DNA of 44,359 nucleotides from positions 1 through 44,359 of the forward strand of contig JARVJS010000021.1 in the NCBI GenBank assembly GCA_029776125.1, read 5' to 3'. A program made the position numbers and the translations under genes. Positions 5,656-40,127 of the stretch are shown here, one piece after another (positions within the stretch are counted from its first letter, which is position 1; each line of letters begins with the position of its first letter). The notes under the pieces were generated by a model. That model searched no databases, had not been told where the DNA came from, and was given only the letters and a program-made list of their open reading frames with translations. Source of the DNA: Nitrososphaeria archaeon. GTDB lineage: Archaea > Thermoproteota > Nitrososphaeria > JACIWG01.

Positions 5656-5657
5656 AT

Positions 5658-5689
5658 CTCTATATATAGGGTACATGAATGTATCAGAA
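5658..5689 (-). promoter_or_regulatory. Element promoter-like motif, copy 2 (class A), abutting the recombinase ATG
   Basis: Transcribed strand reads TTCTGATACATTCATGTACCCTATATATAGAG, then AT, then ATG (5655). No Shine-Dalgarno sequence can fit. Confidence 0.6.
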
Positions 5690-5730
5690 TTTTCCATTTT
5701 TTACTAAAAAACGCTTTAAATTCAAAAGGT

Positions 5731-12904: not shown

Positions 12905-14308
12905 CTACCCCCTTGCTCTTTCTACAATTAAAAGTACGGCTCTTTCATTAAGATTTAATTTCAGTTTGTCCAAGCTAATTGCTAGAGGATTTTGGGTAAT
13001 TTCTTTCCTTAAAAAGTCCTTTTCTCTTATTTCAATCTCTGACTTTTTCCCGGTAACGTAAAAAAATCTTATAACTATTCCTTCCCCTTCAATAACATAT
13101 ATGCCCTTCTCTGTAATGTCTATGTCCCGATACAAAGAATAAGACAAATTTTTATTAATAAAAGTTGTCTCAGGTGGAATTTGCCCTGACATAAAAGCTT
13201 TTACATAATTAACAATTTTCTTTTCATAGGGCATTGAATTGTTTTTTTCTAAAATTTCTTTTATTTTTGATTCCTTATCCTCTAAGTAAACTGTTACCGA
13301 AGGAATTCTTTCAGGTATTCCTATTAAGTTGTAAACTTTATTGCCACAAACAATATACATGTCTACAGGAATTTTGGAATATATTTCTTTTTCTCCCATT
13401 CTTTTAATCACAAACTTTACAAAAGCATTTGTCCCGCTTATTTTAACCTGAACTCCCTTTTCCTCAGAGAAAACTACATCTTTTATGTCTGTTGAACAAA
13501 CTATCCTATTTATGTCTGATGAAGACATTTTTACTGCTGTCATCTTCTCTGGTGCTACTATATAACTGTTACTTGCTAATCCAAATGGTTGTTTATCTTC
13601 CACAACAACATTCTCTTGAAAAGTTTTATTTTCATAATCAGTGCTTACTTCAACTCCCTTTAACAACTGATCAATTGTAATTTCTTTCTTTGTTGTCTGT
13701 GCTTTATTCGTATCTTGCGACACGTTTTTAGTTTCTTTAATACTAGAAACACTAGGCACAAATCCAACTCCTGACATACCAAACACTTTGCTTTTCTGCT
13801 GAGCCTCTAGAGAGTTTACCTTTTTCTGAACGCTCTGTGGATTTATTGTCTCAGACATGTTTTTTACTTTCGGCTCATTTTTAACCTCTGCTTGTTTACC
13901 ACTACTAGAAACAACTCCAGAAGGACTTAATGGGCAAGCACCGCTTTGAACAACAGCAGGAGCACATGATCCAATAGAAGCACTGTTTGTTATTTTTTCT
14001 GATACAGGAATAACACTGTTGTTTTTATCTACTTTTGCCTGATTGTCAACAGCAACAAACATTGACATATGTACCCATCCTATAATTCCTGAAGAACTTT
14101 TTATTTTCATCCATCTCCCTGATTGCTCTATTTCCTCTACAATAATGTCTTTTTTTAGATAAGAAACGACTTGAGATGAAGCATCTGGTTCTTTTCTTAT
14201 TGTTACATTGCCTGTGGTTTTCCACAAATCGCCCGTCTTTGCGTAAACAAAACTCGTTGTAATACAAAAAATAAACAAACAAATTAAGATTAATCTTATT
14301 TTTCCCAT
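12905..14308 (-). CDS. traK: F-type TraK (secretin-like core) with N-terminal SH3b domain
   Basis: The C-terminal part (SSDINRIVCSTDIKDVVFSEEKGVQVKISGTNAFVKF ...) is TraK-like. Residues about 38-97 of the long ORF (GNVTIRKEPDASSQVVSYLKKDIIVEEIEQSGRWMKIKSSSGIIGWVHMSMF) fit bacterial SH3_3. The ORF is open to 14347. I favour the ATG at 14308 (SD AAGGAGA, signal peptide MGKIRLILICLFIF). Confidence 0.75.
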   Translation of the reverse strand: MGKIRLILICLFIFCITTSFVYAKTGDLWKTTGNVTIRKEPDASSQVVSYLKKDIIVEEIEQSGRWMKIKSSSGIIGWVHMSMFVAVDNQAKVDKNNSVIPVSEKITNSASIGSCAPAVVQSGACPLSPSGVVSSSGKQAEVKNEPKVKNMSETINPQSVQKKVNSLEAQQKSKVFGMSGVGFVPSVSSIKETKNVSQDTNKAQTTKKEITIDQLLKGVEVSTDYENKTFQENVVVEDKQPFGLASNSYIVAPEKMTAVKMSSSDINRIVCSTDIKDVVFSEEKGVQVKISGTNAFVKFVIKRMGEKEIYSKIPVDMYIVCGNKVYNLIGIPERIPSVTVYLEDKESKIKEILEKNNSMPYEKKIVNYVKAFMSGQIPPETTFINKNLSYSLYRDIDITEKGIYVIEGEGIVIRFFYVTGKKSEIEIREKDFLRKEITQNPLAISLDKLKLNLNERAVLLIVERARG

Positions 14309-14309
14309 T

Positions 14310-14876
14310 TTATTCTCCTTGTTTATATTCGTTGAATTCAACAACATAAAACATCCCGTTGTCTATTTTATATTTCAATATGTATCTTTTATTCTCGTTT
14401 GTAATAAACTGCTTGTCCTGAGTCCACTGATTTAGTAAACCAGTTGTTATAATCGTATTGTTTTTCTTATCTACTTTTATGCTTGTTATGTAATACGCTG
14501 ATGACACATTTCCTGTTTCTATTTTATCTGCTAAGGAATAAAAAACATCTTTGTAAGAAATAAACGTTGAAGGAGCTACCATCTTTAAAAAATCGTTAAA
14601 CTGAGCTCTTGCAACAGAAGGATTGTAGTTTAAAACAAGCATAGATACATACCTTACCATAGCTTTTAAATATTCATCCGATGCGTCTGAGCCTCCTACA
14701 TACATTTGTGTATTCATAGCAGGAGGAACAAGAATAACTTTCTGCTTGCCAATTAAACTGTAAGTAACTAAACCATTAACAACCAATAGCACGACAAGCA
14801 TTATTACTACAAATTTTAATAATCTTGCTCCATAAATGTAATTTGCCTTTTCCTCAAAATATTTTTTTATTTCCAT
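14310..14876 (-). CDS. traE: F-type TraE
   Basis: 188 aa. Single N-terminal TM and blocks collinear with F TraE (VILVPP ... SDASDEYLKAMVRYVSMLVLNY ... SSAYYITSIKVD). Confidence 0.85.
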   Translation of the reverse strand: MEIKKYFEEKANYIYGARLLKFVVIMLVVLLVVNGLVTYSLIGKQKVILVPPAMNTQMYVGGSDASDEYLKAMVRYVSMLVLNYNPSVARAQFNDFLKMVAPSTFISYKDVFYSLADKIETGNVSSAYYITSIKVDKKNNTIITTGLLNQWTQDKQFITNENKRYILKYKIDNGMFYVVEFNEYKQGE

Positions 14877-15070: not shown

Positions 15071-15337
15071 TTATTCATTAAAAGTTTTCTCAAAAAATAA
15101 AGGTGCACCTTTGAACCGAATTATCCCCAACTTATACAGGTAATGCTTTAAGAAGCCTCTTGGGTATTTCTTTTTGCCTTTAAAATACAAAAAAGGAATA
15201 AAGAATAGTAAAAACCAAAAAATATACCCAAAAGTTAGTGCGAAAAATAAAAGAACTATTATCATTGCAAATTCATCTGCATCCATAAATAAAACTTGAT
15301 GAGGTTTGTGTAGATATTGTGGTATTCTATACTTCAA
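15071..15337 (-). CDS. traL: F-type TraL
   Basis: 88 aa. TTG start with SD AAGGAGG. KYRIPQYLHKPHQVLFMDADEF is collinear with F TraL (KYRFPETL ... GLPLDEL), followed by TM segments and a KGKKKYPRGFLKH block. Confidence 0.8.
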   Translation of the reverse strand: MKYRIPQYLHKPHQVLFMDADEFAMIIVLLFFALTFGYIFWFLLFFIPFLYFKGKKKYPRGFLKHYLYKLGIIRFKGAPLFFEKTFNE

Positions 15338-15437: not shown

Positions 15438-15812
15438 TTAAAACAGTAAACCTAATGTTTCTGTAATTGCGTCAGCCTTAAGCAATGCCGCACCACCAAT
15501 AATTGCAGGAACCGCTGCCATAATTCTGCCGGTTATTGCAGAGACTGCTCCAAGAACTATTGCAGATGCCCCACACACGAAACCAATAGGTCCTTTAAGA
15601 ATTTTGTTTACTGCAATATCATAAACATCATAAGCAAAAGAACCTGAAGCAGGTGCAGTTACTGCATAAACAGCAGGAGCCAAAATCATAACCGCCCACA
15701 TAGCAATCATTGCCATGAAAAGAACCTTTGTCCTTTCCATCTTAAACCCTCCTTTTTGTTTGGTTTTTAGTCTTATATACAACTTTTTTCTGCCACTAAG
15801 GCATTCTATCAA
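15438..15812 (-). CDS. traA: Conjugative propilin, TraA/TrhA-like
   Basis: Long form is 124 aa (TTG at 15812, SD AAGGAGGTGA). The alternative ATG at 15743 (SD AAGGAGGG) gives 102 aa. Predicted cleavage after AVYA leaves about 74 aa with two hydrophobic helices. That resembles F propilin (51-aa leader plus 70 aa). Confidence 0.65.
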   Translation of the reverse strand: MIECLSGRKKLYIRLKTKQKGGFKMERTKVLFMAMIAMWAVMILAPAVYAVTAPASGSFAYDVYDIAVNKILKGPIGFVCGASAIVLGAVSAITGRIMAAVPAIIGGAALLKADAITETLGLLF

Positions 15813-15905: not shown

Positions 15906-16193
15906 TTATTTTTTTATGTTTGAATTAATGAAATTTCTTAAAGCTTCCAGATATTCTTTTGAACTTACAGGGTTTGGATTTTTGTGTGAAGAACCTACTT
16001 CTGTTAATTTAGAAGGTTTGTGAACTGTTATTACAAAAGTTTCAGTGTAAGCGTATTTCACGAACTGGTCGCTATACTGATATGGTAAGAAATGGATATC
16101 TAAAAAAGCACCTTCTTGAGCATTAACAACGCATGTAGACGATATTAATAGAAAAACTAAAAATACTAAAAACTGTAAAAAAATTTTTTTCAT
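15906..16193 (-). CDS. Small secreted hypothetical protein
   Basis: 95 aa. Signal peptide MKKIFLQFLVFLVFLLISSTCVVNA. SD GGAGGAAAT. Last gene of the long dsbC-to-trbC unit. Confidence 0.5.
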   Translation of the reverse strand: MKKIFLQFLVFLVFLLISSTCVVNAQEGAFLDIHFLPYQYSDQFVKYAYTETFVITVHKPSKLTEVGSSHKNPNPVSSKEYLEALRNFINSNIKK

Positions 16194-17987: not shown

Positions 17988-18573
17988 AATATCTTTTCTC
18001 TGCCTCTACTATAGTAGGCGTGCTTTGTATTTTGAATCTCTCTATAATTCTGTCGTTTGCTCTGTAGGCTACCTTGTTCAACAAGCTGCTAACTTTAAAA
18101 ACATCCCCCGAGGTTACTATCACAAGAGTGTTGTAGTCATACAACAAAGGCTGCTTTTTTAACCAATTAATTTCATCAACTGAATTTCCATTTATAAAAA
18201 CCAGTTTTTCCCTAAAAACTACATAATCAAGGGGATTAAAAGTAAAACCTTTAGGATAAATAATTCTTCCTTCAGCATCGACCATATCTACAGGCAAAGT
18301 ATATGTAGGATCTACGTAAAAAATTCTATCGTCCTTAGCTTTCCTTAAATTGTAATTCACGACTAAATTATCCTTAACGGTTTCCTTAAATTTCCTTTCA
18401 ATCATTGACCACTTTATTTTTTGAGCTCTTTGTAGTATCTCTTCGTAAGCGTCTTTTTCCTCTATTGGATATACCTTACCAGTTATTCCTACTGTTTCTG
18501 AAAAACTATAGCTCACAAAAATTACAATTAAACTCAAAATTAATATAACTCTAACCATTTCTACTGACCCCAA
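17932..18573 (-). CDS. traW: F-type TraW
   Basis: 213 aa (TTG at 18573, or ATG at 18558). GKVYPIEEKDAYEEI, NPLDYVVF and LVFINGNSVDEINWLKK are collinear with F TraW. Confidence 0.8.
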   Translation of the reverse strand: MGSVEMVRVILILSLIVIFVSYSFSETVGITGKVYPIEEKDAYEEILQRAQKIKWSMIERKFKETVKDNLVVNYNLRKAKDDRIFYVDPTYTLPVDMVDAEGRIIYPKGFTFNPLDYVVFREKLVFINGNSVDEINWLKKQPLLYDYNTLVIVTSGDVFKVSSLLNKVAYRANDRIIERFKIQSTPTIVEAEKRYFVAKEVGIYGKQNKENKK

Positions 18574-21500
18574 GAATTATTAATGATTTCAATCATTTGT
18601 GGTTCTATATTCTGCATTATATTTCTCTGTATATCCTCTAGATATTCAGAAAGGTCTATTTTATTAAAATCTAATGCCTGAAATTCCTCTGGGAAAAAGC
18701 CCCTACAATTTGGACTTTTTGGCGTTCCCCATCCACCATCTGGACCAAAAGAAATAAGTTGTGGTCTTCCCTGTTCGTGAATAATCCTTGCCAGTTTAGA
18801 ATTAAAACAACAATATCTTCTCGCCCTCTGCACGCACGCCCCTGCAATTTTCTTAATACAATAGGAATCTCCTACCTGATGACAAAAACCAGATTCATTT
18901 AGCGTGGAAGTTGAAATGTCCTGAACATCACAGTTCGACAGCAGTATGTTTAAAGCAAAAGAAAATACTGCTACAGCAAATCCATAAATACTCACAAAAC
19001 CCGTTTTCCAAAGAATTGCCTGAGCCACCAAGTTTACAGCAGACGATAAAATTGGGTCTTTTATTGCCAGACTCGTTGCAAGTGAAACAACTGTTCCCAA
19101 CAGTTCACTTTGTTTAATATACTCGTAAATTATGTCTCCACTTAGGGCGTCTAAATTAAAATCACGAATAGTTATGAAAAGCGTGTCACCACTTTGCTCT
19201 ATCTGAGAGATTGTTCCGTTATTTATAAAAGCATTGTACAGAGAAGCAGCATCTTTACCCGTATAAACACCCACCCCTTGTATGACAAGTCTTCCCGATT
19301 GTGCTCCCGTAAAAGTGTAAGCAAAATTAATTGTTTCACCAAACTTTGAAGTTAACTGCGCAAGGCTAATAGCTTTATATACAGCATATACCATCTCTGC
19401 CATGTTTTTTAAACCTAATAAACTGCCTAATCCTCCCCCTGTTGAATCATAAATCTTGCCTTGAGATTCATCGCAACAGTTGTGAAAACCAGTATACAGT
19501 CCGGATAGTCTACACCTCATTTCTTTACCGTTAAATATGTAAACTGTTCCTAAACACCCGCTATCATTCACCTCTGCGTCGTTAGTCAATCCTTCTGCTT
19601 CAGTATCTTCAGCATTTTCTGTAGTACTTACACAATCAATTGGCGAACACTTATATTGGTTATCAGTTAAATCTTTAAGACAAGGTCTATTTGGATAAGG
19701 ACATGAATATTTTTCCGATATAACACATAAGTCTAAGTTAGGATCTAAGGTAGAACCATCACCGCCTGCAGGACATATTGGCTTACATGTTCCTACTGTT
19801 TTAGTTCCCTCTGCTATACATATATTTGTATTGTAATTGTACCACATACCTTGAGGACATTGAGGCACACAATTACCCATTTGTCCTTGCGGTGTTGCTT
19901 CACATTTCCCTGTTTGAGAATTATACTGAGTGCCTGCAGGACATGTTGGTTGCCCTACACAAGTTCCTGATCTGCTACAAGAAGGAGGACTGCCCGTACA
20001 AGGATACTGACTACCAAAAGGGCAAATATAAGTATATGTTGGTCTAAATTTAATCCAACTACCACAACTCAAAACGTTATAGCCACTACAACTACTATTT
20101 GTAGCCTGAATAATACAAGGTCTAATATAACCGCTGCTCGTCTCTATTCTGTATCCTACAGGATAAGAAGTATAATGACAGGTACAAGGGAAAGTTCCAC
20201 ATCCAGATGGTATAAAACCTTGTGTTGCTCCTGAGCCATTAACGTAGGCTACACTTCCGTGATTAAAACACGAACCTGAACCAGCTAGGGAGTTTGCAAA
20301 CTGAATCGTTGGGTTCGTTCCGCTTCCACATACTATTCCTGCAACATTGCCTGCTACGCCAGTTCTTTGTCCATAAAAATAACTTCCACCAATGTACTGT
20401 GCAGGACAAGTACTATAATTTACCTCTGGTCCAGAGTTATAAGCCGAACAATTTTCAGGAGGTGAATAATTGTTATCCTGTATAACTGTGTTTATGTTTA
20501 TTGTATTGTCTCCGGTAGTAACATTAAAGAAAAATGTCGTATTACCTACTGTTGCACTGGTAAAAGAAAAAGTCAAATCTGAAGTACTTTTATTACAGTT
20601 TGCTGCCTGAACACACGCTGTCTGACAAGCCTGTTGAGTAGGATAACTCTGCCCATTAAGACTGCACTGATAGGAAAAAGTAGGGTCTGCTTCGCATTTT
20701 CCCGTTTGCTGATTGTATTGAGTTCCTGAAGGACAGGTTAAAGATCCGCATACACTTGTACAGGCACTCATTTCTGTATAGGTTTGTCCATCTAAATCGC
20801 ATTTGTAGGTAGCACTGGCTTCGCACTGCCTTGTTTGTTCGTTAAAATTACCTGAACTACAGTAGAAACTGTAACAGGAAGGATTGCACTCTGCAAGTGT
20901 TTCGTATATTTTATTGTCTAGTGTACACTGGTACTGAGTTCCACCGGGACAATCGGCTGGACAAAAAGGTGATGCCTCACAAAGACCACTCGTTGGATTA
21001 TACGCAGTTCCAGTAGGACAGTGTTCATAACAGGCTCCCACTGTGGTTTCACATCTGTTCGTTTGATAATTATATCTCATACCAGAAGGACATAGCGGTT
21101 GACAATCACCCGTAGTTGCTTGAGGTGACGTTTCGCAGTAACCCGTAACAGCACTACACGAAGTTCCCGATACACACTGAGGTGGTAGATTTACTCCAGG
21201 TTGGTTTAACAGTATTCTTGCTATTACTACTGCTGTTTCTGCCCTCGTAATGGCCCTTCCCGCACCAAAAGTTCCGTTGTCATAACCCATCATTAACCCG
21301 AGTTCCCTTGCTTTTTGTACGTATTTAAAATAAGGATGACTACTGGGAACGTCCGAGTAATAAGGAGTCGTGTTGTATGTAAAATTATCTCCTACTTTTG
21401 CAATTACAAACTCTTTAGCTACTTCCTCTCTCAACATATCGTGTCCTTCGTCCTGACAGCTTGAAGTTCCATAACCAAGCCTGCTAAATATTATGTTTAG

Positions 21501-22655
21501 CTCATAACAATTAAGAAGCCCACTAGGTTCCCAGTACTCATACTCTACACGACCTATCATTATTCCTCTTTGAGCAACAAGTTTTATGTAAGAGTACGCC
21601 CAGTGAAAACAAAATACGTCTTTATAAAATATTGGTTGACCATTGAGCATCAAGTGCGGCTCAACGCATTTGTCTATGTCCTCTTTGTAAACAGTTCCTT
21701 GAGGGCATCCAACCTGTCCACAAAAGCTTGTACAACTTTGTAAATCATTGTATTTTTGTCCATTTCTCAAGCAAATAAACTCAGGATTTATCCAGCAGAT
21801 TGAATTTGAGGGCTCATAAACTGCTCCTGACGGGCAACTAAGAGAAGCACAGTTTTGAAAACAAGTATTAAAATCCTGATAAGTATTTTGATCTAGTCCG
21901 CACTTAAAAGCAGGTGGTGCAACACATTTATCCAAATCTGAATTGTAATAAGTTCCTGCAGGACAAACAGGTGGAAAAGTACATTTACCATCTTGGGGAA
22001 CAAATCCTGAAGGACATTCCGCATTGCAAGGAGCTAAATCTATAGTGCAAAGTTGTTGTCCCTCTGCCGTATTAATACACTCGCCAAATTCATCGTCCTG
22101 AAGCTGCCCATCGTTATTGAAATCCTTTGCGCATGCTACCGGAGGAAGTTCCGGTGGTGAAGTCGCTGAAGGAGGCTCAATATTTATTGGCTCGCACTTT
22201 TTTGTTTCTACGTTCCATGCATACTGTAAGTTCGGACCTCCTAAACAGAAAGGAATTCTGATACACTTCTTTTCAACAGGTGAAAACATATAAGGTAAAG
22301 GACACGTTTCTGTAGTGCGCTCAACAACACATAAACCTAGCTCGTGATTAAAAGTTCCCTGAATCCCTCCTTCTGCAGGGGGACAAACGGGAACTCCTTC
22401 CTGTCCCTGCAAAGTAGCATAGGCGTTCCCATAATTGCGTAAATCCTGCAAAAATAGAAAAGGTATCCCGTCAAAAACTTTGCTGTTTCCGATCTGTAAG
22501 TTTATGGTTAAAAAATATGATACGTCAAATAGGAGCGGTTCTAAAAATATCAGCACAGAAAGAAGTGTACAAGTTATTATTTCAAACGCCTTTTTCACCG
22601 AAAACTCCTTATGGCAACGAAGGAGGAGGCAGAAAAACTGCCTTCCCAGTTTCAT
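18561..22655 (-). CDS. traN: Giant TraN (mating-pair stabilisation) with SLH domains and tandem Cys modules
   Basis: The C-terminus RRYCCFNSKLARIIHEQGRPQLISFG ... PNCRGFFPEEFQALDFNKIDLSEYLEDI matches the F TraN C-terminus (YCQFDSKLAQIVQQQGR ... PDCRGIT ... FNRLDFTNFYEDL), and FHNCCDE is also present. At 1364 aa it is about twice the 602 aa of F TraN. I counted about 90 Cys by hand. Confidence 0.85.
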   Translation of the reverse strand: MKLGRQFFCLLLRCHKEFSVKKAFEIITCTLLSVLIFLEPLLFDVSYFLTINLQIGNSKVFDGIPFLFLQDLRNYGNAYATLQGQEGVPVCPPAEGGIQGTFNHELGLCVVERTTETCPLPYMFSPVEKKCIRIPFCLGGPNLQYAWNVETKKCEPINIEPPSATSPPELPPVACAKDFNNDGQLQDDEFGECINTAEGQQLCTIDLAPCNAECPSGFVPQDGKCTFPPVCPAGTYYNSDLDKCVAPPAFKCGLDQNTYQDFNTCFQNCASLSCPSGAVYEPSNSICWINPEFICLRNGQKYNDLQSCTSFCGQVGCPQGTVYKEDIDKCVEPHLMLNGQPIFYKDVFCFHWAYSYIKLVAQRGIMIGRVEYEYWEPSGLLNCYELNIIFSRLGYGTSSCQDEGHDMLREEVAKEFVIAKVGDNFTYNTTPYYSDVPSSHPYFKYVQKARELGLMMGYDNGTFGAGRAITRAETAVVIARILLNQPGVNLPPQCVSGTSCSAVTGYCETSPQATTGDCQPLCPSGMRYNYQTNRCETTVGACYEHCPTGTAYNPTSGLCEASPFCPADCPGGTQYQCTLDNKIYETLAECNPSCYSFYCSSGNFNEQTRQCEASATYKCDLDGQTYTEMSACTSVCGSLTCPSGTQYNQQTGKCEADPTFSYQCSLNGQSYPTQQACQTACVQAANCNKSTSDLTFSFTSATVGNTTFFFNVTTGDNTININTVIQDNNYSPPENCSAYNSGPEVNYSTCPAQYIGGSYFYGQRTGVAGNVAGIVCGSGTNPTIQFANSLAGSGSCFNHGSVAYVNGSGATQGFIPSGCGTFPCTCHYTSYPVGYRIETSSGYIRPCIIQATNSSCSGYNVLSCGSWIKFRPTYTYICPFGSQYPCTGSPPSCSRSGTCVGQPTCPAGTQYNSQTGKCEATPQGQMGNCVPQCPQGMWYNYNTNICIAEGTKTVGTCKPICPAGGDGSTLDPNLDLCVISEKYSCPYPNRPCLKDLTDNQYKCSPIDCVSTTENAEDTEAEGLTNDAEVNDSGCLGTVYIFNGKEMRCRLSGLYTGFHNCCDESQGKIYDSTGGGLGSLLGLKNMAEMVYAVYKAISLAQLTSKFGETINFAYTFTGAQSGRLVIQGVGVYTGKDAASLYNAFINNGTISQIEQSGDTLFITIRDFNLDALSGDIIYEYIKQSELLGTVVSLATSLAIKDPILSSAVNLVAQAILWKTGFVSIYGFAVAVFSFALNILLSNCDVQDISTSTLNESGFCHQVGDSYCIKKIAGACVQRARRYCCFNSKLARIIHEQGRPQLISFGPDGGWGTPKSPNCRGFFPEEFQALDFNKIDLSEYLEDIQRNIMQNIEPQMIEIINNSWGQ

Positions 22656-24678
22656 CCATCTTTTTCTTTTGACCCGTTGAACATATCAAATCTTGCCCAG
22701 CAAGTCTGATAGTTTGCATTATAGTTGACGCTGCAGGAAAATCGTCCTGACACCTACAGTCTGCTACTATCTCTTCTCCCTGCAAGGTAGGACATATAAA
22801 TGTACCGCTGTCGTTTCTTTCGCACTTTCTGTTTAGGTATACGTAATCACCCTGTATATTTGTATGCATCGAACTTATCACGCCTGAAAAACTTACCTGC
22901 GTATTTTCTCTATTAACTCTAACCTTGCATGTATACTCGCAATCGCTACCTTCCGGCATTGGCGTAAGTTTTATCTTTCTGTCTGGATATTCCTGCCAAG
23001 AACCCTGCTGTTTAAGTGTATCGGTGTAGATAAGTTCTCCTTTTTGTTTGTCAAAGTTCACGCTTGGAACTACTGTTGATACCTTATGTCCTGCATCCGA
23101 AAGATCAAAACTTCCTTGACTGTCACACTTATAAGTTCTCTCAATGCTCCAGTATTCTGGACAAACATACTGATTGCAGATAAGTTGACAGGATTTAAGA
23201 GGTTGTAAGCCTGTTTTTACCCCGCTTCTTACGGTATAAGTTCCGTTGACTTTTTCATTCCACAATTTACAGTCGCTTCTGTTTTCAACTTGCTGACAGG
23301 TATTATTATCGGAAAAAATAACCTCACAGGCATCTTTGACTCTTATCGTTATGATTGCGTATCCTTCACCACAACCAGCCACTGCAACTTTTACGAAAGA
23401 CTGTAAAAGAGTATTTGGAGGATAGCTTCTAAACAGATTTGTCAAATCCAAATTCGGATATCTTTTCCATGAAGTTCTAAGCTCGCAATCCCCTGGTGGG
23501 CTTGTAGACCCTCTGTCAGTCCACGGATAAGGTCCGGAATAAATCAGTCTCTCGTTAAGCCACACCTGAATCCAGTCGTCCCACGCAACGTATTCAAGCA
23601 CTGCTGATTCAATTAGGTCTGGTCGTTTTAACCTGAATGTATGAGATAGTTCGTGAATCTCGCAATCCCCACACCAGTAGTTATCACCTTCCCAACCTAA
23701 TATTACCTGGATACATCCCGGTTCTCCATTTAAACAATTACGATAAGACCCGCCATTGCCTTCAACAGATTCTATTATGTCTTCGGGACGAATTATTTGT
23801 CCTTCGTAAGAAGTCTTAGTAATCTGGCAGGTTACAAAATCACTCTGAGAAGCACCCGATAAGATAAGATTATATTTACTTTCAGGATCCCTGCTTTGAT
23901 TAAAAACCTCACTTTCTACCTGCATTTTAAATATAGCATCAGAGGTTTTGCTAAAATATCTCTCTGGAAAATTCTCTCCTCCTGAAATAGCAGGTAAATT
24001 GCAGTTTGAATAATCCTGCCCATAAAAATAAATAGAAGTGTCTACAATTCTGCTGTTTGATATGGCTACCCTTGAGTCTCCCCTGAAGGCACTTGCTACT
24101 GCTCCACCAATTGTTTTTACTACAACAGGCAGGTTGCTCATAACAATGTTGTTACCACAAGATTTATTAATACAATAACACCCCGATAAATCTGACAGTT
24201 CTGCTTCTGCTATATATAAATTCCCGTCTCTGTAAGCGAACTTTTTAGGTAAACAGTTGTCCCAAGTTCCTGGAGTGCACGTTATAAAACCATTTGTACA
24301 TATTCCGCTCACATTATCTATTGTAAGTTGTCTGTCTATTTGTCCGTTCATGTCAGAATCCCAGTACACAAAAACTTTTATATCTCCAGTACTTTTTGGT
24401 TGAATGTTAACCGTAAGATACTCTTTACTGCTGGGACAGGCCACTTGTGGATTGAAAGTTGTTTGTCTGTCTATAGTGGTCATATCGCCACCGCCAAGCA
24501 GTGGTCCGATAAGATTTCTTTGTAGCGTTTCCTGAGTGCCACCAAAATTTTTAAAATTATCGTACATTTCCTTTGCCTTTTGTTCAGGACTAACCTGTTC
24601 GTCAGCAAAAACATTAAATGTTAAGCACAAACTAACTGCTAAACCTGCACCTAACCATTTCCTCAATAGCCTCTTCAT
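22609..24678 (-). CDS. Secreted Cys-rich protein of unknown function, located between traC and traN
   Basis: 689 aa. Clear signal peptide MKRLLRKWLGAGLAVSLCLTFNVFA and many Cys residues. The segment VAWDDWIQVWLNERLIYSG is faintly PA14/GLEYA-like. It overlaps both neighbours by 47 nt. Confidence 0.6.
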   Translation of the reverse strand: MKRLLRKWLGAGLAVSLCLTFNVFADEQVSPEQKAKEMYDNFKNFGGTQETLQRNLIGPLLGGGDMTTIDRQTTFNPQVACPSSKEYLTVNIQPKSTGDIKVFVYWDSDMNGQIDRQLTIDNVSGICTNGFITCTPGTWDNCLPKKFAYRDGNLYIAEAELSDLSGCYCINKSCGNNIVMSNLPVVVKTIGGAVASAFRGDSRVAISNSRIVDTSIYFYGQDYSNCNLPAISGGENFPERYFSKTSDAIFKMQVESEVFNQSRDPESKYNLILSGASQSDFVTCQITKTSYEGQIIRPEDIIESVEGNGGSYRNCLNGEPGCIQVILGWEGDNYWCGDCEIHELSHTFRLKRPDLIESAVLEYVAWDDWIQVWLNERLIYSGPYPWTDRGSTSPPGDCELRTSWKRYPNLDLTNLFRSYPPNTLLQSFVKVAVAGCGEGYAIITIRVKDACEVIFSDNNTCQQVENRSDCKLWNEKVNGTYTVRSGVKTGLQPLKSCQLICNQYVCPEYWSIERTYKCDSQGSFDLSDAGHKVSTVVPSVNFDKQKGELIYTDTLKQQGSWQEYPDRKIKLTPMPEGSDCEYTCKVRVNRENTQVSFSGVISSMHTNIQGDYVYLNRKCERNDSGTFICPTLQGEEIVADCRCQDDFPAASTIMQTIRLAGQDLICSTGQKKKMDETGKAVFLPPPSLP

Positions 24679-27199: not shown

Positions 27200-28096
27200 C
27201 TAATTATTATTCTTTTTTTTCCACATTGGAGAAGGTTCCAATGGATCAACGCTGGTTCCCTTTTGAAATTCGTAAATACCATACCTATCAGGACTTCCTC
27301 CAGACATAATCCTAATTGCCCTCGCAGTTCTCCGATATATCTCATCAAGAGAAATAACCCCTGCACTTATCGGCATATACTTGCCTGTTTTTTGATCTAC
27401 AACTATTATCGTAGGAGTTACTTCTACAGCAAACTGCTGTTGAGCAGATGGATTTCTCTCTACATCAACAACCTTTATAGGAATGCCATCCATCTCTGCG
27501 TATTTGAGTATTTTTAATTGCGTATCACAATACCCGCAGTCCTGTTTAACAAAGACTACATAACCAAATTCAGAAGCATTCTTCTGCTTGTAATCCTGCA
27601 ATTCTTTGCGTATAAGATCGTTTCGTTGAGTTATACCAGGACCAACAATTGGTATATCACGCTCTGTTGAAAGCTCGGGATATTTTTGCCAAACATAACC
27701 TGCATAATGAGAAAAAAGTAGTGCCTTTTTTCTCGCTACATCCTGCAAATTGTAAAACTCATAAACATTTTCTTCTGTAGGTTTTTGAACCGCTTTTTTT
27801 AAATAATAATCGTAGAGCTTGCTAAACTCATCAGGATGCATATAAAGCAGTTCTTCGTAAGAGTATTCTTTTAAAGGCTTAGGAGTAAATACCTGCTTTT
27901 GCTGTTCCTGAAAAGGCTCTTTTTTTGTCTCCTCTTCCTGTTTTTCCTCTTTCTTGTAAATATCCTCATACCACCACCAACCTTCTTTAGTTTTTCCTCT
28001 ATAATAAGAATCTACTTTCTTTTGCTCTTTGTCCTGCACTCCATTACTATGCACAGGAAAAACAAGAAAAATAATAATTAGAAAAACTACTACCAT
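27200..28096 (-). CDS. traF: F-type TraF (thioredoxin-fold pilus assembly protein), retains CxxC
   Basis: 298 aa. Signal peptide, EGWWWYED block and thioredoxin-like VVFVKQDCGYCDTQ ... VTPTIIVVD. Confidence 0.8.
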   Translation of the reverse strand: MVVVFLIIIFLVFPVHSNGVQDKEQKKVDSYYRGKTKEGWWWYEDIYKKEEKQEEETKKEPFQEQQKQVFTPKPLKEYSYEELLYMHPDEFSKLYDYYLKKAVQKPTEENVYEFYNLQDVARKKALLFSHYAGYVWQKYPELSTERDIPIVGPGITQRNDLIRKELQDYKQKNASEFGYVVFVKQDCGYCDTQLKILKYAEMDGIPIKVVDVERNPSAQQQFAVEVTPTIIVVDQKTGKYMPISAGVISLDEIYRRTARAIRIMSGGSPDRYGIYEFQKGTSVDPLEPSPMWKKKNNN

Positions 28097-28665
28097 ATTG
28101 GTAATAACCTCGCAAGTATTTTTTCTTTAGGAACCACTCCAAAATATTTACTGTCATAACTGTCTTTGTGAGTACCTACAACAAAATAAAATCCTTCGGG
28201 AATTCTATATTCGCACTTTTCTGTAGCACCACAAGGGTTATATGCTTTAACAGGTATTCCTGTTTTGCTATATTTTTTAGCCTTTCCTAAGTATTCACCC
28301 TTACAGTAGTAATCGTCATTATGAATTATTAAAGTTTCCCCACTTGAACAACCTATTTTTTTACTAATATTCATTCCTTTTGCAAAACAATCGTTTTTAT
28401 CTGTTGTTACCATTACATAATGCCCATTCTCCAAACCCTCTGGAACTATTTTCCAAAATATTTTATGATCAACAGAATTTCCATAACTTATTACAATTTT
28501 GCTTGATATAAAAAAACCTATTAACGCCATCATCGAAATTCCTGTAATCAAATTAATAAGTTTTTCAGGGTTTCTTAATGTCCTCTTTGATTTGCGTATC
28601 AGTATTTTCTGTTTTAGGTTTAACCCTCTCTGGAAGTTTCGGAGTAAGATTTTCAACTCTATCAC
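28090..28665 (-). CDS. S26-family signal peptidase-like protein (TraF-RP4/TrhF type, pilin maturation)
   Basis: The C-terminal VVGTHKDSYDSKYFGVVPKEKILARLLPIW matches the S26 box (SxDSRYFG). N-terminal anchor. The start is uncertain: the ORF overlaps trbI by 101 nt and the internal Met at 28533 would remove the overlap. Confidence 0.65.
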   Translation of the reverse strand: MIELKILLRNFQRGLNLKQKILIRKSKRTLRNPEKLINLITGISMMALIGFFISSKIVISYGNSVDHKIFWKIVPEGLENGHYVMVTTDKNDCFAKGMNISKKIGCSSGETLIIHNDDYYCKGEYLGKAKKYSKTGIPVKAYNPCGATEKCEYRIPEGFYFVVGTHKDSYDSKYFGVVPKEKILARLLPIW

Positions 28666-29748: not shown

Positions 29749-31353
29749 TTAGTTAGCAGAAAACCAGATTTGAACGTATCCATCACCTGAATTTGCCCCT
29801 GACTGTGAACTCGTACAGTTAAATCCTGAACGACAATAACCAGAACCACCACCGCCTCCACCACCATTTCCATTTCCACCTGCACCACCGCCACCGCCAT
29901 ATCCGGCTCCACCGCCTCCGCCACCCCATTCATTTCCACCTGCACCGCCACAACCATAACCGCCACTACCACCATATTTAGTGTATGAGTAGTGAACATA
30001 TAAAATACCGCCTGAAAAATCAGATGACGCAGGTCCATATAAAACATTACTTCCATTATAATAACGACCCCTACCACCATAACCTAAAGAGCCATTGTCT
30101 CCATAATAAGTACTACCACTATATGTAAGCCCACCACCTGCACCACCATATCCACAAGCACCACCTCCACCTGAAGCATAACCACTTGAAGCATTACTAC
30201 CACCACCTCCGCCACCTGCTACACCCCAACCTGTGGTTCCTACCGAACCTCCACCATTTGTAGTACCACCACTTCCTTGACCACCGCCTCCACCACCTAA
30301 TCCTGCTTTATTTCCACCAGCACCTGCTGCAGTTCCGCCATAACCACCACTACCTCCACCTGCACTACCATTACTACTACCACCGCCACCAGAGCCACCT
30401 GCACCGTTATATCCGGCTCCACCGCCTCCGCCTGCTACAAGCAATATATTGCTGTAACCAACACTATCTATCCATACAGCAGATGCACCACCACCGCCAG
30501 CACCACCATACGCACTGGAATTATCACTTGTTCCATCAAAACCTTTCCCACCTACTAAAATTCTTAATGCTAAAGTTGTCCTATTTGGAAACATAGTGTT
30601 CAGGTCAGATATTTTAATTTTCCCTACAGTAACACCACCGTTACCACCTAAATATTGTATAGTTCCCACATTATTTACAGCATGACCACCTCTACCGCCT
30701 GCAACTATTATGTTTAAGTAATAATTACCACATCTAGACACATAATCTTGCCAATTATAAACAAAAAAATTCTTTAATCCATATTCAAAATAATTCACAT
30801 TATATAAATTCAAATTATTACAAAATACATCATCAGAAGTAGCACCGCCACCAGAGCCACCGCTACCACCTACGTCTCCATGAAATCCTTCTACCACTAT
30901 GTCGTTTCCCTGAACTTCTGTGTCTGTACAAGCAGTCTGAAAGGTTTTATCACGACCTGCAGAGATTACTCTGATTATCAATCCACTTTTTGGTGGTGTT
31001 GTATTGTTTTGTGAATAAGTAGGATTAGCAGTGTTTGGACTTCCTAAATCCCATGTGCAGTATCTATACTGAGTTCCCCATTCGTCTACCTTGCTCATAG
31101 GTAAATCTGCCGGAAGTGTATTGCCTGATGCTTCTTTAAGAGGTTCTTTAAAGGTATCATTGTCAGGATCTGCTGTATTCATGAGCAACCAATTGACAAT
31201 ATTTGTCATTCTTTGCTTTGTAAGCAAAGTTTTTTGTGTATCCGTCATCAGGTTCCATCCCGAAACAACTTCAACTAAAGTATATGCCAGAATCATTAAA
31301 AAAGCTACTGCAAGTAAAACTTCTATTAATATAAACCCGCTATCTTTTCTCAT
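29749..31353 (-). CDS. Pilin-like protein with a large C-terminal glycine-rich domain (candidate pilus tip adhesin)
   Basis: 534 aa. Class III signal MRKDSG/FILIEVLLAV (G-1, F+1, E+5). About 365 C-terminal residues consist of GGxGG runs interrupted by short beta-like segments (YYLNIIVAGGRGG, LALRILVGGKG, NILLVAGGGGGAG), ending in GDGYVQIWFSAN. Confidence 0.7.
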   Translation of the reverse strand: MRKDSGFILIEVLLAVAFLMILAYTLVEVVSGWNLMTDTQKTLLTKQRMTNIVNWLLMNTADPDNDTFKEPLKEASGNTLPADLPMSKVDEWGTQYRYCTWDLGSPNTANPTYSQNNTTPPKSGLIIRVISAGRDKTFQTACTDTEVQGNDIVVEGFHGDVGGSGGSGGGATSDDVFCNNLNLYNVNYFEYGLKNFFVYNWQDYVSRCGNYYLNIIVAGGRGGHAVNNVGTIQYLGGNGGVTVGKIKISDLNTMFPNRTTLALRILVGGKGFDGTSDNSSAYGGAGGGGASAVWIDSVGYSNILLVAGGGGGAGYNGAGGSGGGGSSNGSAGGGSGGYGGTAAGAGGNKAGLGGGGGGQGSGGTTNGGGSVGTTGWGVAGGGGGGSNASSGYASGGGGACGYGGAGGGLTYSGSTYYGDNGSLGYGGRGRYYNGSNVLYGPASSDFSGGILYVHYSYTKYGGSGGYGCGGAGGNEWGGGGGGAGYGGGGGAGGNGNGGGGGGGSGYCRSGFNCTSSQSGANSGDGYVQIWFSAN

Positions 31354-32342
31354 TTTCCTGCCTTTTTAATAACAAAAACACTTAAACCATCTGCTTTTTC
31401 TGCGGTAAAAATTGGAGTCTTTTTCTCAAACCTTAGTTTGTTTTCAACATGCTCATGCTGATTTTCTCCTGTAACTATGTAAATTAACTTGTCGTTTGAA
31501 CAATAAAACACTTTCCCTATTCCTTCTACATTAACAACAGAACAGTGATTCTTTAGGTTTTCATTTACCGCCTGCACTCTGTCTTTGTAAACTATTAGTT
31601 CAGTATTTTTCTTTTTTATTTCTTCTCTTAATTTTTCGTTCTCCATTGTTAGGCTTTCAACTTGAACTGCCATACTTTTGTACTTCTGTAATTCCTCACG
31701 AAGCCTCTTTATGGTTTCGTCCTTTTCTGTAAAAATACTATAATTTTCCCTGCGTTCTTCTTCTATTTGTTGTAATGTTTTATTGTGGCTGCTATCCAAC
31801 TGTTGAATTGCTTTTTCTTTTTCCTTTAATTGCCGTTGTAAATTTTTAATCGTGTTTTCAAAATCCTTAATTTTTGCTTCTAATTCTTTCTTTTCCTGTT
31901 CTATCTTTATGTTTTTTTGTTCAAGCTCCTTTTGCTGTTTTTTTTGTTTTTCTTTTAAAACTTTTTTATGTGCATCACAAATTAATTCAGGATACTCTAC
32001 AATACATCCGTCCACCTCATCACCGTTATTAACAGATAGCCTTTTACCTAAAGAATTAATAACTATAATTTTCCCATTTACAACCCCTTTGATTTGAGGA
32101 AAATTTTCTTTGCCTGCAGACACAGGTTCAGGCATTTTAGTTAAAGGCATTGGAGGAGGTATAGCTTCAGGCTTTTTGTCTACCGTTTCTGATTGTTGAA
32201 ATTTTGCTTTCTTACTACTTCCACTTTTATCTTGACCTGTCTTATTTTGACCTGAGTTATAAAAAGGTGTTTCAACTGCCAAAGCTATATGCCACATAAA
32301 AAACAAAAACATTAATACTAAAATATTTAGCCTTTTTCTCAT
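31350..32342 (-). CDS. Secreted coiled-coil protein, possible PilP/GspC-like pilus alignment component
   Basis: 330 aa. Signal peptide. IKGVVNGKIIVINSLGKRLSVNNGDEVDGCIVEY resembles the PilP/GspC HR beta-domain. It is followed by a coiled coil of about 130 aa. Functional call is weak. Confidence 0.4.
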   Translation of the reverse strand: MRKRLNILVLMFLFFMWHIALAVETPFYNSGQNKTGQDKSGSSKKAKFQQSETVDKKPEAIPPPMPLTKMPEPVSAGKENFPQIKGVVNGKIIVINSLGKRLSVNNGDEVDGCIVEYPELICDAHKKVLKEKQKKQQKELEQKNIKIEQEKKELEAKIKDFENTIKNLQRQLKEKEKAIQQLDSSHNKTLQQIEEERRENYSIFTEKDETIKRLREELQKYKSMAVQVESLTMENEKLREEIKKKNTELIVYKDRVQAVNENLKNHCSVVNVEGIGKVFYCSNDKLIYIVTGENQHEHVENKLRFEKKTPIFTAEKADGLSVFVIKKAGK

Positions 32343-32791
32343 TTTACATACACCTCTTTTTCTTTTTTAGGAATTACTGTAAAACTTACTACTCTTTCTC
32401 CACAGTTTATACCTAAACACAAATTAGAGTATTCAATCTTATAAGGAAAACTACTGATAAAATCTAAAAAGGATAAAAACTTTTCATATTCTTCTTTGTT
32501 TATTAATATTTCCTTTTTGTTTGAAAACAAAATAAAACCTTCATTACCTTGTTGTACTTCAATGGGCAAATTGTTGCTTCTTATATAATTTTCAAGTACT
32601 TGTTTTATAAAAATAGACTCTCCAGAGGAAAGACTCACAAAATCTTTTTTTAGATTTATTTTTATATCCTGATTTAAAACTCTCTGAACATCATTTTTAT
32701 AAAAAATAATGCTATATATAAGCAAAAAAACACCGCTACATACTAAAATCAAGGGAAAAAACAACCTTATTATTTTCATAAGTTCCTCCAT
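32339..32791 (-). CDS. Bitopic membrane protein, possible PilO/GspM-like
   Basis: 150 aa. One N-terminal TM (IIRLFFPLILVCSGVFLLIYSIIF) and a small periplasmic domain. The assignment rests on operon context only. Confidence 0.35.
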   Translation of the reverse strand: MEELMKIIRLFFPLILVCSGVFLLIYSIIFYKNDVQRVLNQDIKINLKKDFVSLSSGESIFIKQVLENYIRSNNLPIEVQQGNEGFILFSNKKEILINKEEYEKFLSFLDFISSFPYKIEYSNLCLGINCGERVVSFTVIPKKEKEVYVK

Positions 32792-33557
32792 GCATTTCTA
32801 AAAACTTTTGTGCTGACATTTCTTTGTCAAAATATACTTCTACAACAAATTTTTTATCACTCTGATATATCTTTAAAATTTTTCCATCCTCTATACTCTT
32901 TTCAACTTTATTGAGTAAATCTGCCAAACTGATTTTTGCAGAAGTGGAAACATTAACTTGCGACATTAACTGATTCTGTCGATTTTTTAAAATTAAATCT
33001 TTTTTGTTGTACGCTTCGTTCAATACAAAAAAATAAGTTAACAATCCCACAAAAAAAACCACTAAACCAATACTTAAATAAGACTTGTTGTCAAGAGACC
33101 AACGCAATCTAAGTTGTTTAGGTATTTTACCTACTGATAAAAGCAAATCTTCATTAATTTCTACGCCACTTTCAGGCTTTTTATAGGTTATTACATGTTG
33201 AATTTCATTGCCTTTGCTAATAAAATAGTGGTAGAACTCTTTATTTTTATCCTTTAGATAATAATCTCCTTCCCCCATAAAAACAACGCTTAATACAGGA
33301 AACTTTCCCTTAACAAAATTTTTTGACTTGCCTGCTATAAATAACAAAACTCCATTTTTGTATGTGTAGGTATAGTAAAAATTATCGCCTAAAATGGGGA
33401 TACATCTTCCCTTAATGTAGTTCTCTATTTCCCGCTTGGGAATAACTACGCTTTCAGCAACATACTCTTCAAGATGAACAAAATCTTTAAGCTTTTTTTT
33501 CTCTGAGACTTGAACCCGATCGTCAATCTTTGTTTCACTTTTTTTCCTCTTAAACAT
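32736..33557 (-). CDS. Bitopic membrane protein, possible PilM-N/GspL-like
   Basis: 273 aa. About 155 aa cytoplasmic, TM YLSIGLVVFFVGLLTYFFVL, then a periplasmic tail. SD AAGGAAGG. First gene after motif copy 8. Context-based call. Confidence 0.35.
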   Translation of the reverse strand: MFKRKKSETKIDDRVQVSEKKKLKDFVHLEEYVAESVVIPKREIENYIKGRCIPILGDNFYYTYTYKNGVLLFIAGKSKNFVKGKFPVLSVVFMGEGDYYLKDKNKEFYHYFISKGNEIQHVITYKKPESGVEINEDLLLSVGKIPKQLRLRWSLDNKSYLSIGLVVFFVGLLTYFFVLNEAYNKKDLILKNRQNQLMSQVNVSTSAKISLADLLNKVEKSIEDGKILKIYQSDKKFVVEVYFDKEMSAQKFLEMHGGTYENNKVVFSLDFSM

Positions 33558-33591
33558 TGTCCTTCCTTTTGTATGTTTTGTCTAATACCCT

Positions 33592-33625
33592 CTCTCTATA
33601 TATAGGGTACATGAATGTATCAAAA
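33592..33625 (-). promoter_or_regulatory. Element promoter-like motif, copy 8 (class A)
   Basis: Transcribed strand reads TTTTGATACATTCATGTACCCTATATATAGAGAG. It lies 3 nt after the pilC stop and 34 nt upstream of the next ATG. Confidence 0.65.
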
Positions 33626-33628
33626 GCA

Positions 33629-34798: not shown

Positions 34799-34810
34799 AG
34801 CAACCCTCTC

Positions 34811-36337: not shown

Positions 36338-36343
36338 AGTGTA

Positions 36344-36874: not shown

Positions 36875-36890
36875 TTTTCCTCTCCTCTTA

Positions 36891-36921
36891 CAAGAAGCGA
36901 GGGGGTTTCCCTCGCTTCTTG
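36891..36921 (-). other. 13-bp-stem GC-rich hairpin filling the gap between the two pilin genes
   Basis: CAAGAAGCGAGGG-GGTTT-CCCTCGCTTCTTG, a perfect stem. No U-tract follows on the minus strand; the SD of the next pilin follows immediately. Confidence 0.6.
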
Positions 36922-37455: not shown

Positions 37456-37489
37456 TTCAAATACCTCCTTCTTTTTTTTATTAAACCTC

Positions 37490-39055: not shown

Positions 39056-39106
39056 TTTTGCCTCTTTTTTAATTTGTTTTTGAACTATTTGCATTTTTTG
39101 TATTTT

Positions 39107-39159: not shown

Positions 39160-39178
39160 TGAAACAAAAAAGTTTCAC
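39159..39178 (-). terminator. Weak AT-rich hairpin GTGAAAC-T6-GTTTCAC overlapping the HD-GYP stop
   Basis: 7-bp stem followed by CTTTTC on the minus strand. Low predicted stability. Confidence 0.3.
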
Positions 39179-40095: not shown

Positions 40096-40127
40096 ACCTG
40101 CTTTATTACCTTACCCTCTCCTTTTCC

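Follow-up and report, generated by a model that had tools for sequence, protein, structure and literature searches.

An S-layer homology repeat pair in a two-gene TraN on a conjugative element very probably hosted by Thermodesulfovibrio

What would a pair of S-layer homology (SLH) repeats do in the middle of TraN, the mating-pair stabilisation protein of F-type conjugation systems? This question was raised by contig JARVJS010000021.1 (assembly GCA_029776125.1, filed under a Nitrososphaeria archaeon), of which the whole stretch of 44,359 nt was analysed and is referred to here as the window. The open reading frame (ORF) at 18561..22655 on the minus strand was confirmed to comprise 1364 codons, including 92 for Cys, and by sequence comparison it is traN-C, the C-terminal half of an F-type TraN encoded by two genes on an integrative and conjugative element (ICE), very probably of Thermodesulfovibrio (Nitrospirota). 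Its protein consists of a conserved C-terminal base and an appendage of ~850 aa N-terminal to the base, and the SLH repeats are located in this appendage. With a probability of roughly 0.4, we propose that the appendage is an exposed stalk on which the SLH pair would act as a lectin-like second adhesive arm, binding an envelope glycan of Nitrospirota and thereby stabilising mating pairs. Residue numbers throughout follow the 1364-aa ORF.

The C-terminus had been recognised as TraN in the original prediction, and a Pfam scan agreed: PF06986 (F_T4SS_TraN) matched residues 1233-1320 with 78 bits (cutoff 23; E=1.1e-21). NCBIfam TraN models aligned to the final ~120-160 aa only (best E=4.5e-33), and in the 931-aa TraN model NF011458, positions 720-869 were matched by traN-C residues 1188-1345. 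The cutoffs for full-length equivalogs were not reached (NF009019, the best, 114.6 vs 518 bits; TIGR02750, 81.5 vs 422 bits); the N-terminal TraN homology sits in a separate upstream gene. The ORF is as long as predicted, but the likely product is shorter than 1364 aa. A GTG at ORF codon 20 (nt 22598), which has an AAGGAG Shine-Dalgarno sequence ahead of it and is also the start of the database gene call (P0015, 1345 aa), is almost certainly the true start judging from the sequence. The traN-C coding sequence then runs from this GTG to the stop codon (18561..22598, minus strand) and encodes 1345 aa with exactly 90 Cys, which is the figure of about 90 that had been counted by hand. This is well above the at least 20 Cys looked for in a TraN, and genes for DsbC and a thioredoxin-like TraF lie close by.

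The upstream gene, traN-N (22609..24678, minus strand), encodes u689, a secreted protein of 689 aa with 30 Cys and an N-terminal signal-like sequence, with homology to plasmid TraNs over their N-terminal ~650 aa. It matched NF011458 at positions 236-389 (E=1.2e-24), and in a tblastn search 91-97% of it was covered by plasmid genes annotated as TraN (E~1e-85). The two genes together cover N- and C-terminal parts of the model (236-389 and 720-869), as is expected of a TraN divided over two genes. In three related loci (L002, L003, and L005) traN-N was also found upstream of traN-C. The intergenic gap of 10-11 nt was kept in L002 and L003 though u689 is only 45% identical, which argues from sequence conservation that the split is old and stable; a u689-like region was fused to TraN in only 4 of 161 relatives. 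L002 (GCA_038871635.1, JAVZHP010000026.1), the closest relative of the window, encodes a bacterial F-type type IV secretion system (T4SS) with outer-membrane components in a metagenome-assembled genome (MAG) labelled 'Candidatus Bathyarchaeia archaeon', a label that is almost certainly a binning error for this contig.

Among plasmids, pYE854 of Yersinia enterocolitica showed a similar organization, with adjacent genes of 679 and 536 aa, both annotated as TraN, and with the same order as in the window: traC, traN-N, traN-C, (traW), traU, trbC. Compared to pYE854 TraN-N, u689 was 30% identical over 692 aligned positions, i.e., nearly its entire length (E=2e-98), and the C-terminal domain of traN-C was 52% identical to that of pYE854 TraN-C over 132 aa. 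The plasmid TraN-C likewise starts with a signal peptide, an EF-hand-like Cys loop, and CPxG hairpins. In contrast, the window protein is 2.5 times longer (1345 vs 536 aa), and its ~25 extra Cys modules, 190-aa beta-rich segment, and SLH pair are all missing from the plasmid protein.

Two SLH domains had been predicted at residues about 343-392 and 432-482, and the SLH match proved significant: PF00395 scored 60.8 bits on the whole of traN-C (cutoff 20.8; E=1.2e-16; best stretch 433-475) and 68.9 bits on a 166-aa SLH fragment. Of the two profiles that the original prediction named for checking, PF00395 was thus above its cutoff and TIGR02750 below. The PF00395 pass rests on SLH2 (residues 432-483; 21207..21362, minus strand), an intact repeat with TRAE at T470-E473, with G453 and G457, and with the Trp position replaced (SHPYFKY). 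SLH1 (residues 343-421; 21393..21629, minus strand) was degenerate; scored alone, it gave 18.3 bits (E=0.002), under the cutoff of 20.8 and over profile positions 2-27 only, and a custom hidden Markov model (HMM) detected it with an independent E-value of 1.2e-4. A 55-homologue alignment, BLASTP to the SLH-triplet protein P0325, and AlphaFold agreed in placing the second helix of SLH1 at 409-421, after a first helix at 354-362 and past a low-confidence insertion of 24-36 aa at ~369-404. Hence the placement of SLH2 stood, whereas the second half of SLH1 was found to be at 409-421 and not at 369-392, part of the insertion having been taken for it. By alignment and model, SLH1 has all parts of an SLH repeat, though in degenerate form and with an insertion in its loop.

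The AlphaFold model of the SLH segment had a mean pLDDT (predicted local distance difference test) of 76.4 and a predicted template modelling (pTM) score of 0.69, with helices at 354-362, 409-421, 443-451, and 471-483, low confidence at 369-404, and a pLDDT above 90 in SLH2. All of the top 12 Foldseek matches in the PDB were SLH domains; the best was Sap (3pyw; probability 0.96, template modelling (TM) score 0.50), followed by SpaA, with weak E-values (at least 0.055). By sequence, the PDB matches of SLH2 were OmpM (8bz2, the best) and Sap (3pyw). In SLH ligand complexes, as described in Silale 2023 with reference to the SpaA structures, Trp and Gly residues contact the sugar and the Arg of TRAE is salt-bridged to the pyruvate ketal. 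SLH1 keeps W352, G364/G368, and R409 (in LREE instead of TRAE), and SLH2 keeps G453/G457 and R471 (in TRAE) and has SHPYF instead of the Trp; the Arg at the ketal-contacting position is retained in both repeats.

A third SLH repeat was found neither in traN-C, nor in P0001, the cluster of the window protein, nor in a six-frame scan of the whole window, by which a complementing repeat elsewhere in the window was ruled out. Thus, the window protein and P0001 have two repeats, while three are present in P0002, the only other TraN cluster shown to carry SLH (see below). A chimeric assembly was likewise rejected as explanation for the insert, because the fusion is found again on contigs independent of each other (L002, L003, L005, and the 9-member P0002 cluster). 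The S-layer proteins Sap (B. anthracis; 3pyw/6bt4) and SpaA (P. alvei; 6cwc and related entries) belong to the same Pfam family and share the TRAE Arg and the conserved Gly with the window protein. However, they carry N-terminal pseudo-trimers of three repeats that bind pyruvylated secondary cell-wall polymer (SCWP) in monoderms, whereas the window protein has two repeats, one with an insertion, in mid-protein and as part of the T4SS of a Gracilicutes diderm. The OmpM/SlpA tethers of diderm Terrabacteria are similar in having SLH on an outer-membrane-associated protein, and OmpM1 (8bz2) is the best PDB sequence match of SLH2. OmpM differs in that it trimerises and combines a single SLH at the N-terminus with a coiled-coil stalk and a porin barrel at the C-terminus, and the family is reported absent from Gracilicutes; none of this layout was seen in traN-C, in which the SLH repeats are internal and the Pfam scan found no porin or coiled-coil family.

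A profile built from the TraN SLH segments detected 72 proteins (E down to 1e-53), mostly short proteins or gene fragments, many of which ended in an SLH triplet. The repeats of this subfamily were joined by 'YGE(N/D)F(T/S)Y..TPY(F/Y)SDVP' and many ended in '...RAFLGM'; the window protein has KVGDNFTYNTTPYYSDVPSSHPYFKYVQK. The named relatives came from one Thermodesulfovibrionales MAG and one Nitrospirales MAG, and an identical 12-mer, SDVPSSHPYFKY, was common to the TraN SLH module and these Nitrospirota relatives; BLASTP of the module to P0325 gave E=1e-21 with a 24-aa gap. The Thermodesulfovibrionales gene (L006, 10001-10585) is located among housekeeping genes on a 145-kb chromosomal contig. 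The Nitrospirales gene adjoins a gene for an M10-protease/Flg_new_2/SLH protein (L007, 1-2625) and a type II secretion system (T2SS) cluster. Partner domains within the subfamily were RHS, BACON, and Lcl_C (in metagenomic relatives), M10 protease, and Flg_new_2. These partners and the T2SS neighbour suggest that this kind of SLH triplet sits on secreted, surface-retained proteins of the host phylum. The triplets (P0325, P0336, and the L007 M10 protease-SLH protein) are the closest relatives of the TraN SLH and share its linker and the 12-mer. They differ in being complete and at the extreme C-terminus of RHS, BACON, Lcl_C, or protease proteins, ending in ...RAFLGM, whereas in TraN the repeats lie within the protein and number only two in the window lineage. 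Because the triplet type is normally C-terminal on secreted Nitrospirota proteins, recruitment of the module within the host phylum is the most likely origin on sequence grounds. An SLH-based surface-display system in a phylum of the Gracilicutes is possible; a single literature search found no paper combining Nitrospirota with an SLH domain, and searches for TraN together with SLH found none connecting the two.

Within TraN, the SLH module was rare. The TraN C-terminal domain was found in 3037 representative clusters (E<=1e-3), and among the 150 nearest of these and the matches of the first search (~160 in total) SLH was present in only two, P0001 and P0002. No plasmid in PLSDB matched traN-C beyond its C-terminal 38%, and none carried SLH. 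A metagenome scan with the TraN alignment, which used low-information patterns, gave one locus, L005, of the P0002 type, and a scan of genome contigs with TraU gave one Thermodesulfovibrio locus, in which TraN is cut by the contig end.

The P0002 TraN has three repeats with the motifs TRAE, TRAQ, and TRRV, and its best local alignment to the window protein was 37% identical. As all three repeats are retained in P0002, the SLH pair of the window lineage is, by this comparison, an eroded derivative of an SLH triplet. A further explanation is that an ancestral TraN gained a working triplet, of the kind still present in P0002, and that the pair is its decaying relic, which has lost ligand binding and persists only as a structural spacer in the stalk. 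The interruption of SLH1 by the 24-36-aa low-confidence insertion and its score under the Pfam cutoff, the replaced Trp of SLH2, and the moderate fold match to Sap and SpaA (TM 0.4-0.5) are in line with such decay. On the other hand, the ligand-contact Arg in both repeats, the Gly residues, and W352 are retained. Moreover, comparison with L002 showed a ratio of nonsynonymous to synonymous substitution rates (dN/dS) of 0.16-0.19 over SLH1, linker, and SLH2 (0.19 for the SLH region), which does not exceed the values found elsewhere in the protein (0.07-0.20 in every segment, 0.15 overall). We consider a relic quite unlikely on this balance, keeping in mind that purifying selection by itself does not tell binding from a structural function.

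The comparison with L002 also showed that TraN-C is 86% identical between the two loci, whereas neighbouring proteins are 45-74% identical where aligned over most of their length. At the nucleotide level, identity within the tract 18584..22180 (minus strand) ranged over 83-98% across the extension and 74-89% across the base, compared to 44-64% in both flanks, and the right-hand edge of the tract coincided with the traN-C stop codon. The synonymous divergence (dS) amounted to 0.15-0.5 for the appendage and 0.8 for the base and rose to ~2 for the N-terminal 150 residues. The identity peak relative to the flanks and the lower dS of appendage and base indicate exchange of nearly the entire traN-C between diverged ICE backbones by recombination, and the low dN/dS indicates that it is under purifying selection. 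The G+C content was rejected as a guide to the direction of exchange, because the higher value of traN reflects its amino-acid composition and the third-position value (GC3 0.28) is like that of the neighbours. Such a swap of the cassette between backbones of only 44-64% identity is evidence from nature that the arm acts as a transferable specificity module.

The host of the ICE was deduced from its flank and its transfer genes. A Wza-like gene flanking the ICE encodes a protein that shares 83% identity with its counterpart in the isolate Thermodesulfovibrio sp. 1176, with the next named relatives at 48% or less, and TraU and TraE were 71 and 76% identical to proteins of a Thermodesulfovibrio MAG; the G+C content of the window is 35%. 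Because of these identities Thermodesulfovibrio is very probably the host; the genus belongs to the Nitrospirota and thus to a Gracilicutes phylum. Witwinowski et al. (bioRxiv 10.1101/2021.05.31.446380) place Nitrospirae in Gracilicutes, where OmpM is absent and SLH together with CsaB 'practically absent', and in their survey table all seven Nitrospirae genomes, including T. yellowstonii, are negative for OmpM and for the SLH+CsaB pair. In the supplement, T. yellowstonii DSM 11347 is negative for four outer-membrane tethers (OmpM, OmpA, Pal, and Lpp) and only LolA was found.

These results do not fit the proposal that this TraN was re-engineered for an SLH/OmpM-type diderm, such as Thermotogae, Negativicutes, Deinococcus-Thermus, or cyanobacteria, and adapted to CsaB-pyruvylated SCWP. 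The SLH match behind the proposal is real, with its TRAE motif, the best PDB sequence match of SLH2 is an OmpM SLH, and binning of such elements is unreliable, as L002 illustrates. Nevertheless, the flanking gene is closest to a cultured Thermodesulfovibrio and the T4SS genes to a Thermodesulfovibrio MAG, the phylum scored negative as described above, the nearest SLH relatives are from Nitrospirota and not from the classical phyla, and traN-C has neither the barrel nor the coiled coil of OmpM. An envelope of that type is thus very improbable here. A host without SLH biology had been named as counter-evidence in the original prediction, and this held in part: OmpM and the SLH+CsaB pair are scored negative, but SLH-triplet proteins are encoded chromosomally in Thermodesulfovibrionales and Nitrospirales. 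As these chromosomal triplets are the nearest relatives of the TraN repeats, some SLH ligand probably exists in the Nitrospirota lineage.

The remainder of the appendage was shown to be largely of a kind common among TraNs. Hydrophobic 19-mers in traN-C clustered at two places only, residues 20-51 and 1213-1244. The first is an N-terminal segment (22503..22598, minus strand) and presumably a Sec signal or anchor. Within the leader (residues 20-80; 22415-22598), an 'AYA' at 78-80, ~30 residues past the hydrophobic segment, was invariant in the window protein, P0001, and P0002. An EF-hand-like calcium-loop motif, DFNNDGQLQDDE, was recognised by sequence and by comparison with relatives at residues 178-189 between C175 and C193 (22077..22133, minus strand); weak EF-hand Pfam matches were obtained at the equivalent position of P0002, and the pattern 'CxxDLNxxGxxxxxExxxC' occurs in the consensus of 38 giant TraNs and in pYE854 TraN-C. 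Three blocks of Cys modules follow on the minus strand, at residues 207-335 (block I; 21651..22037), 494-687 (block II; 20595..21176), and 878-1008 (block III; 19632..20024). In block I, CPxG...C hairpins alternate with C-x-L/R-D/N-G/N-Q-x-Y-x5-C-x3-C modules. Blocks II and III are separated by a segment rich in Ser, Gly, Thr, and Asn (residues 688-877; 20025..20594, minus strand), presumably beta-rich, which matched no Pfam family and is absent from P0002. The conserved base (residues 1034-1364; 18564..19556, minus strand; PF06986, NF011458) contains a helical/hydrophobic insertion of ~170 aa with its hydrophobic core at 1213-1244.

Both Cys modules that had been described in the original prediction were borne out by shuffling (2000 shuffles). 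CP.G, for which at least 10 copies of a CP(S/A/Q)GT type had been claimed, was present in 12 copies compared to a mean of 0.5 and a maximum of 3 in shuffled sequences, and 'C-x-[LR]-[DN]-x-x-x-Y-x5-C-x3-C' in the predicted 5 copies compared to 0. A resemblance of the Cys spacing to Kazal domains was not borne out: the Kazal HMM gave nothing at E<=10, and Kazal identity was rejected, a Kunitz match in the PDB (E=0.085) being judged spurious. CBM_14 (peritrophin-A) remained below threshold in traN-C (15.7 bits vs a cutoff of 22.1; E=0.017), with the similarity confined to the C-terminal CPxG..F/Y..C hairpin; it was stronger in relatives, reaching 35 bits in P0002 and a best E of 7e-18 among the 38 giant TraNs, 7 of which were matched. 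A ConA-like lectin domain was found in one of the 38. Giant Cys-rich TraNs are common and reach 2305 aa and 137 Cys, and their consensus holds both the CPxG hairpins and the EF-hand-like loop; by this comparison the Cys modules are therefore generic to the giant-TraN clade, and the unusual part is the SLH insert. The view that TraN was doubled in size by two SLH domains and Cys modules thus holds for the Cys modules, which together with the 190-aa beta-rich segment account for most of the increase, and not for the SLH pair, which adds only ~140 aa.

In the TraNs characterised so far, a base in the outer membrane bears exposed tips that can be swapped and that choose the recipient; TraNV carries two such tips (Low et al. 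2022, PMC9246713; PMC13104618). The four classes TraNS, TraNM, TraNL, and TraNV resemble the window protein in their conserved Cys-rich C-terminal base with the variable part N-terminal to it, in their variation in size (up to 1882 aa in Xanthomonas), in their swappable tips setting recipient specificity, and, in TraNV, in the coexistence of two distinct adhesive arms (PMC9246713; PMC13104618). They differ in that their tips are beta-sandwich domains binding OmpK36, OmpW, OmpA, and OmpF, in that no SLH or glycan-binding domain is reported for them, and in being single polypeptides from Proteobacteria. In the proposed mechanism, the appendage would form a surface-exposed stalk and its SLH pair would bind the envelope glycan that tethers the hosts' own SLH-tagged exoproteins. 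Such binding in trans to recipients would provide a second, sugar-directed contact that stabilises mating pairs, and the arm would work beside the canonical tip-like region provided by traN-N. It would also move between ICE backbones as a cassette, as is expected for a determinant of recipient specificity. The ConA-like lectin (1/38) and CBM_14-like modules (7/38) in the extensions of other giant TraNs support a sugar-directed role. Further points in its favour are the retained Arg in both SLH repeats, the purifying selection on the SLH region, the coincidence of the exchange tract with traN-C, and the kinship of the module with triplets on apparently secreted, surface-retained proteins.

Several observations weigh against this role. 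The topology of the appendage was not modelled with confidence: AlphaFold on residues 165-1364 (13-sequence alignment) gave a mean pLDDT of 38 and a pTM of 0.29 and was confident only in the C-terminal base. The SLH module is eroded, with its third repeat gone, SLH1 interrupted and sub-threshold on its own, and the Trp of SLH2 replaced, while SLH ligands are normally bound in grooves between three repeats according to Silale 2023. No SLH+CsaB pair is recorded in the seven surveyed Nitrospirae genomes, and no CsaB-type pyruvyl transferase was found among the ORFs of the window. Every diderm-bacterial SLH domain characterised so far works in the periplasm, according to Witwinowski et al. and Silale 2023. 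TraN-medium tips are published at residues 205-360 (Low et al. 2022, PMC9246713; PMC13104618), and by position the matched region of u689 would overlap such a tip; as the canonical tip-like region is then in traN-N, the SLH arm need not bind the recipient. Finally, this T4SS family carries other domains that may bind the wall, namely an SH3b domain on TraK and an OmpA-family protein in L002 and L003, which would fit anchoring in cis.

Anchoring in cis would mean that the SLH pair holds on to a wall-associated polymer of the donor cell, whether periplasmic or at the cell surface, and fixes TraN and the T4SS outer-membrane complex to the envelope instead of contacting the recipient. It is one of the two functions suggested in the original prediction, the other being a grasp on the recipient wall. 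Besides the periplasmic precedents, the putative wall binders of the ICE family, and the tip-like region on the separate TraN-N, the negative result of T. yellowstonii for four standard outer-membrane tethers is consistent with an element that supplies its own. However, TraN is modelled as anchored in the outer membrane with its variable parts exposed, and an appendage of ~850 aa, which reaches ~1900 aa in relatives, would be hard to fit into the periplasm. Lectin-like inserts in the same region of relatives, the resemblance of the SLH-subfamily partners to secreted exoproteins, and the swapping of the arm between backbones in the manner of a specificity module also argue against cis anchoring, which we regard as rather unlikely but as a serious rival, better placed than a relic.

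The adhesive-arm reading can be extended to a functional exposed lectin that would be the first glycan-directed TraN, with a hitherto undescribed SLH display system on an envelope glycan in Nitrospirota and the same glycan as the conjugation receptor; in this full form we hold it to be doubtful. If true, C-terminal SLH triplets would hold T2SS-secreted proteases and RHS/BACON proteins on this glycan. TraN tips are the best-understood recipient determinants of F-type plasmids, and all known cases recognise outer-membrane proteins; the SLH arm would then widen this principle to include glycans of the envelope and a thermophilic, deep-branching phylum. It would further offer a handle on the SLH ligand in a Gracilicutes lineage without classical OmpM/CsaB and on conjugation across such envelopes. 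Should the pair be a cis anchor or a relic, the finding would modestly enlarge the list of TraN size variants.

Further analysis of the window showed a complete set of F-type mating-pair formation (MPF_F) genes on the same strand: TraC, TraF, TraW (TIGR02743, E=2.7e-28), TraU, TrbC, TraE, TraK, TraB, TraV, TraH, and TraG. On one side of traN-C the order was integrase (4801-5697, minus strand), TraG, TraH, TraV, TraB, TraK, TraE, a pilin-like ORF, TrbC, TraU, and TraW, with capsule genes past the integrase. On the other side, traN-C was followed by the 689-aa gene, TraC, TraF, an S26 peptidase (28090-28665, minus strand), and DsbC. Past DsbC came a type IV pilus/T2SS-like cluster, then two HD-domain proteins and a coupling protein. 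All ORFs with an assigned function are on the minus strand, and the GC skew was negative in all 2-kb bins. A circular plasmid was rejected, as the contig ends do not overlap; in the window no tRNA gene marking an att site and no terminal repeat was found, and no relaxase family was found among the ORFs scanned.

TraK (12905-14347, minus strand) has an N-terminal extension of ~200 aa, in which SH3_3 matched residues 47-95 (E=2.8e-9) ahead of TraK_N and TraK_C. This extension was also found in L002 and, judged by its sequence, may equip the T4SS outer-membrane core complex with peptidoglycan binding. An OmpA-family gene (PF00691) is located just after trbC in L002 (13549-14178), L003 (7572-8246), and probably a further locus, L001 (7852-8481); the window has no OmpA-family gene at this position, where a 95-aa ORF (15906-16193) is found instead. 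A 124-aa pilin-like ORF (15438-15812, minus strand) showed a weak match to TrbC/TraA-type pilins (E=1.4e-4), and an 88-aa ORF (15071-15337, minus strand) occupies the position of TraL in L002; these two are probably the pilin and the TraL of the window system.

The type IV pilus/T2SS-like cluster (29749-39094) is inside the ICE and, like its members, on the minus strand. Its products are a secretin (37490-39094), a pair of pseudopilins (36344-37455), a T2SSE ATPase (34811-36337), a T2SSF protein (33629-34798), and, from 29749-31353, a protein of 534 aa that has an N-methyl prepilin motif; the cluster recalls the thin pili that some conjugative plasmids encode as accessories. Two HD-domain proteins (39175-41807, minus strand), one of them of the HD_5 type, are encoded between the secretin and the coupling protein and may have a signalling role within the ICE.

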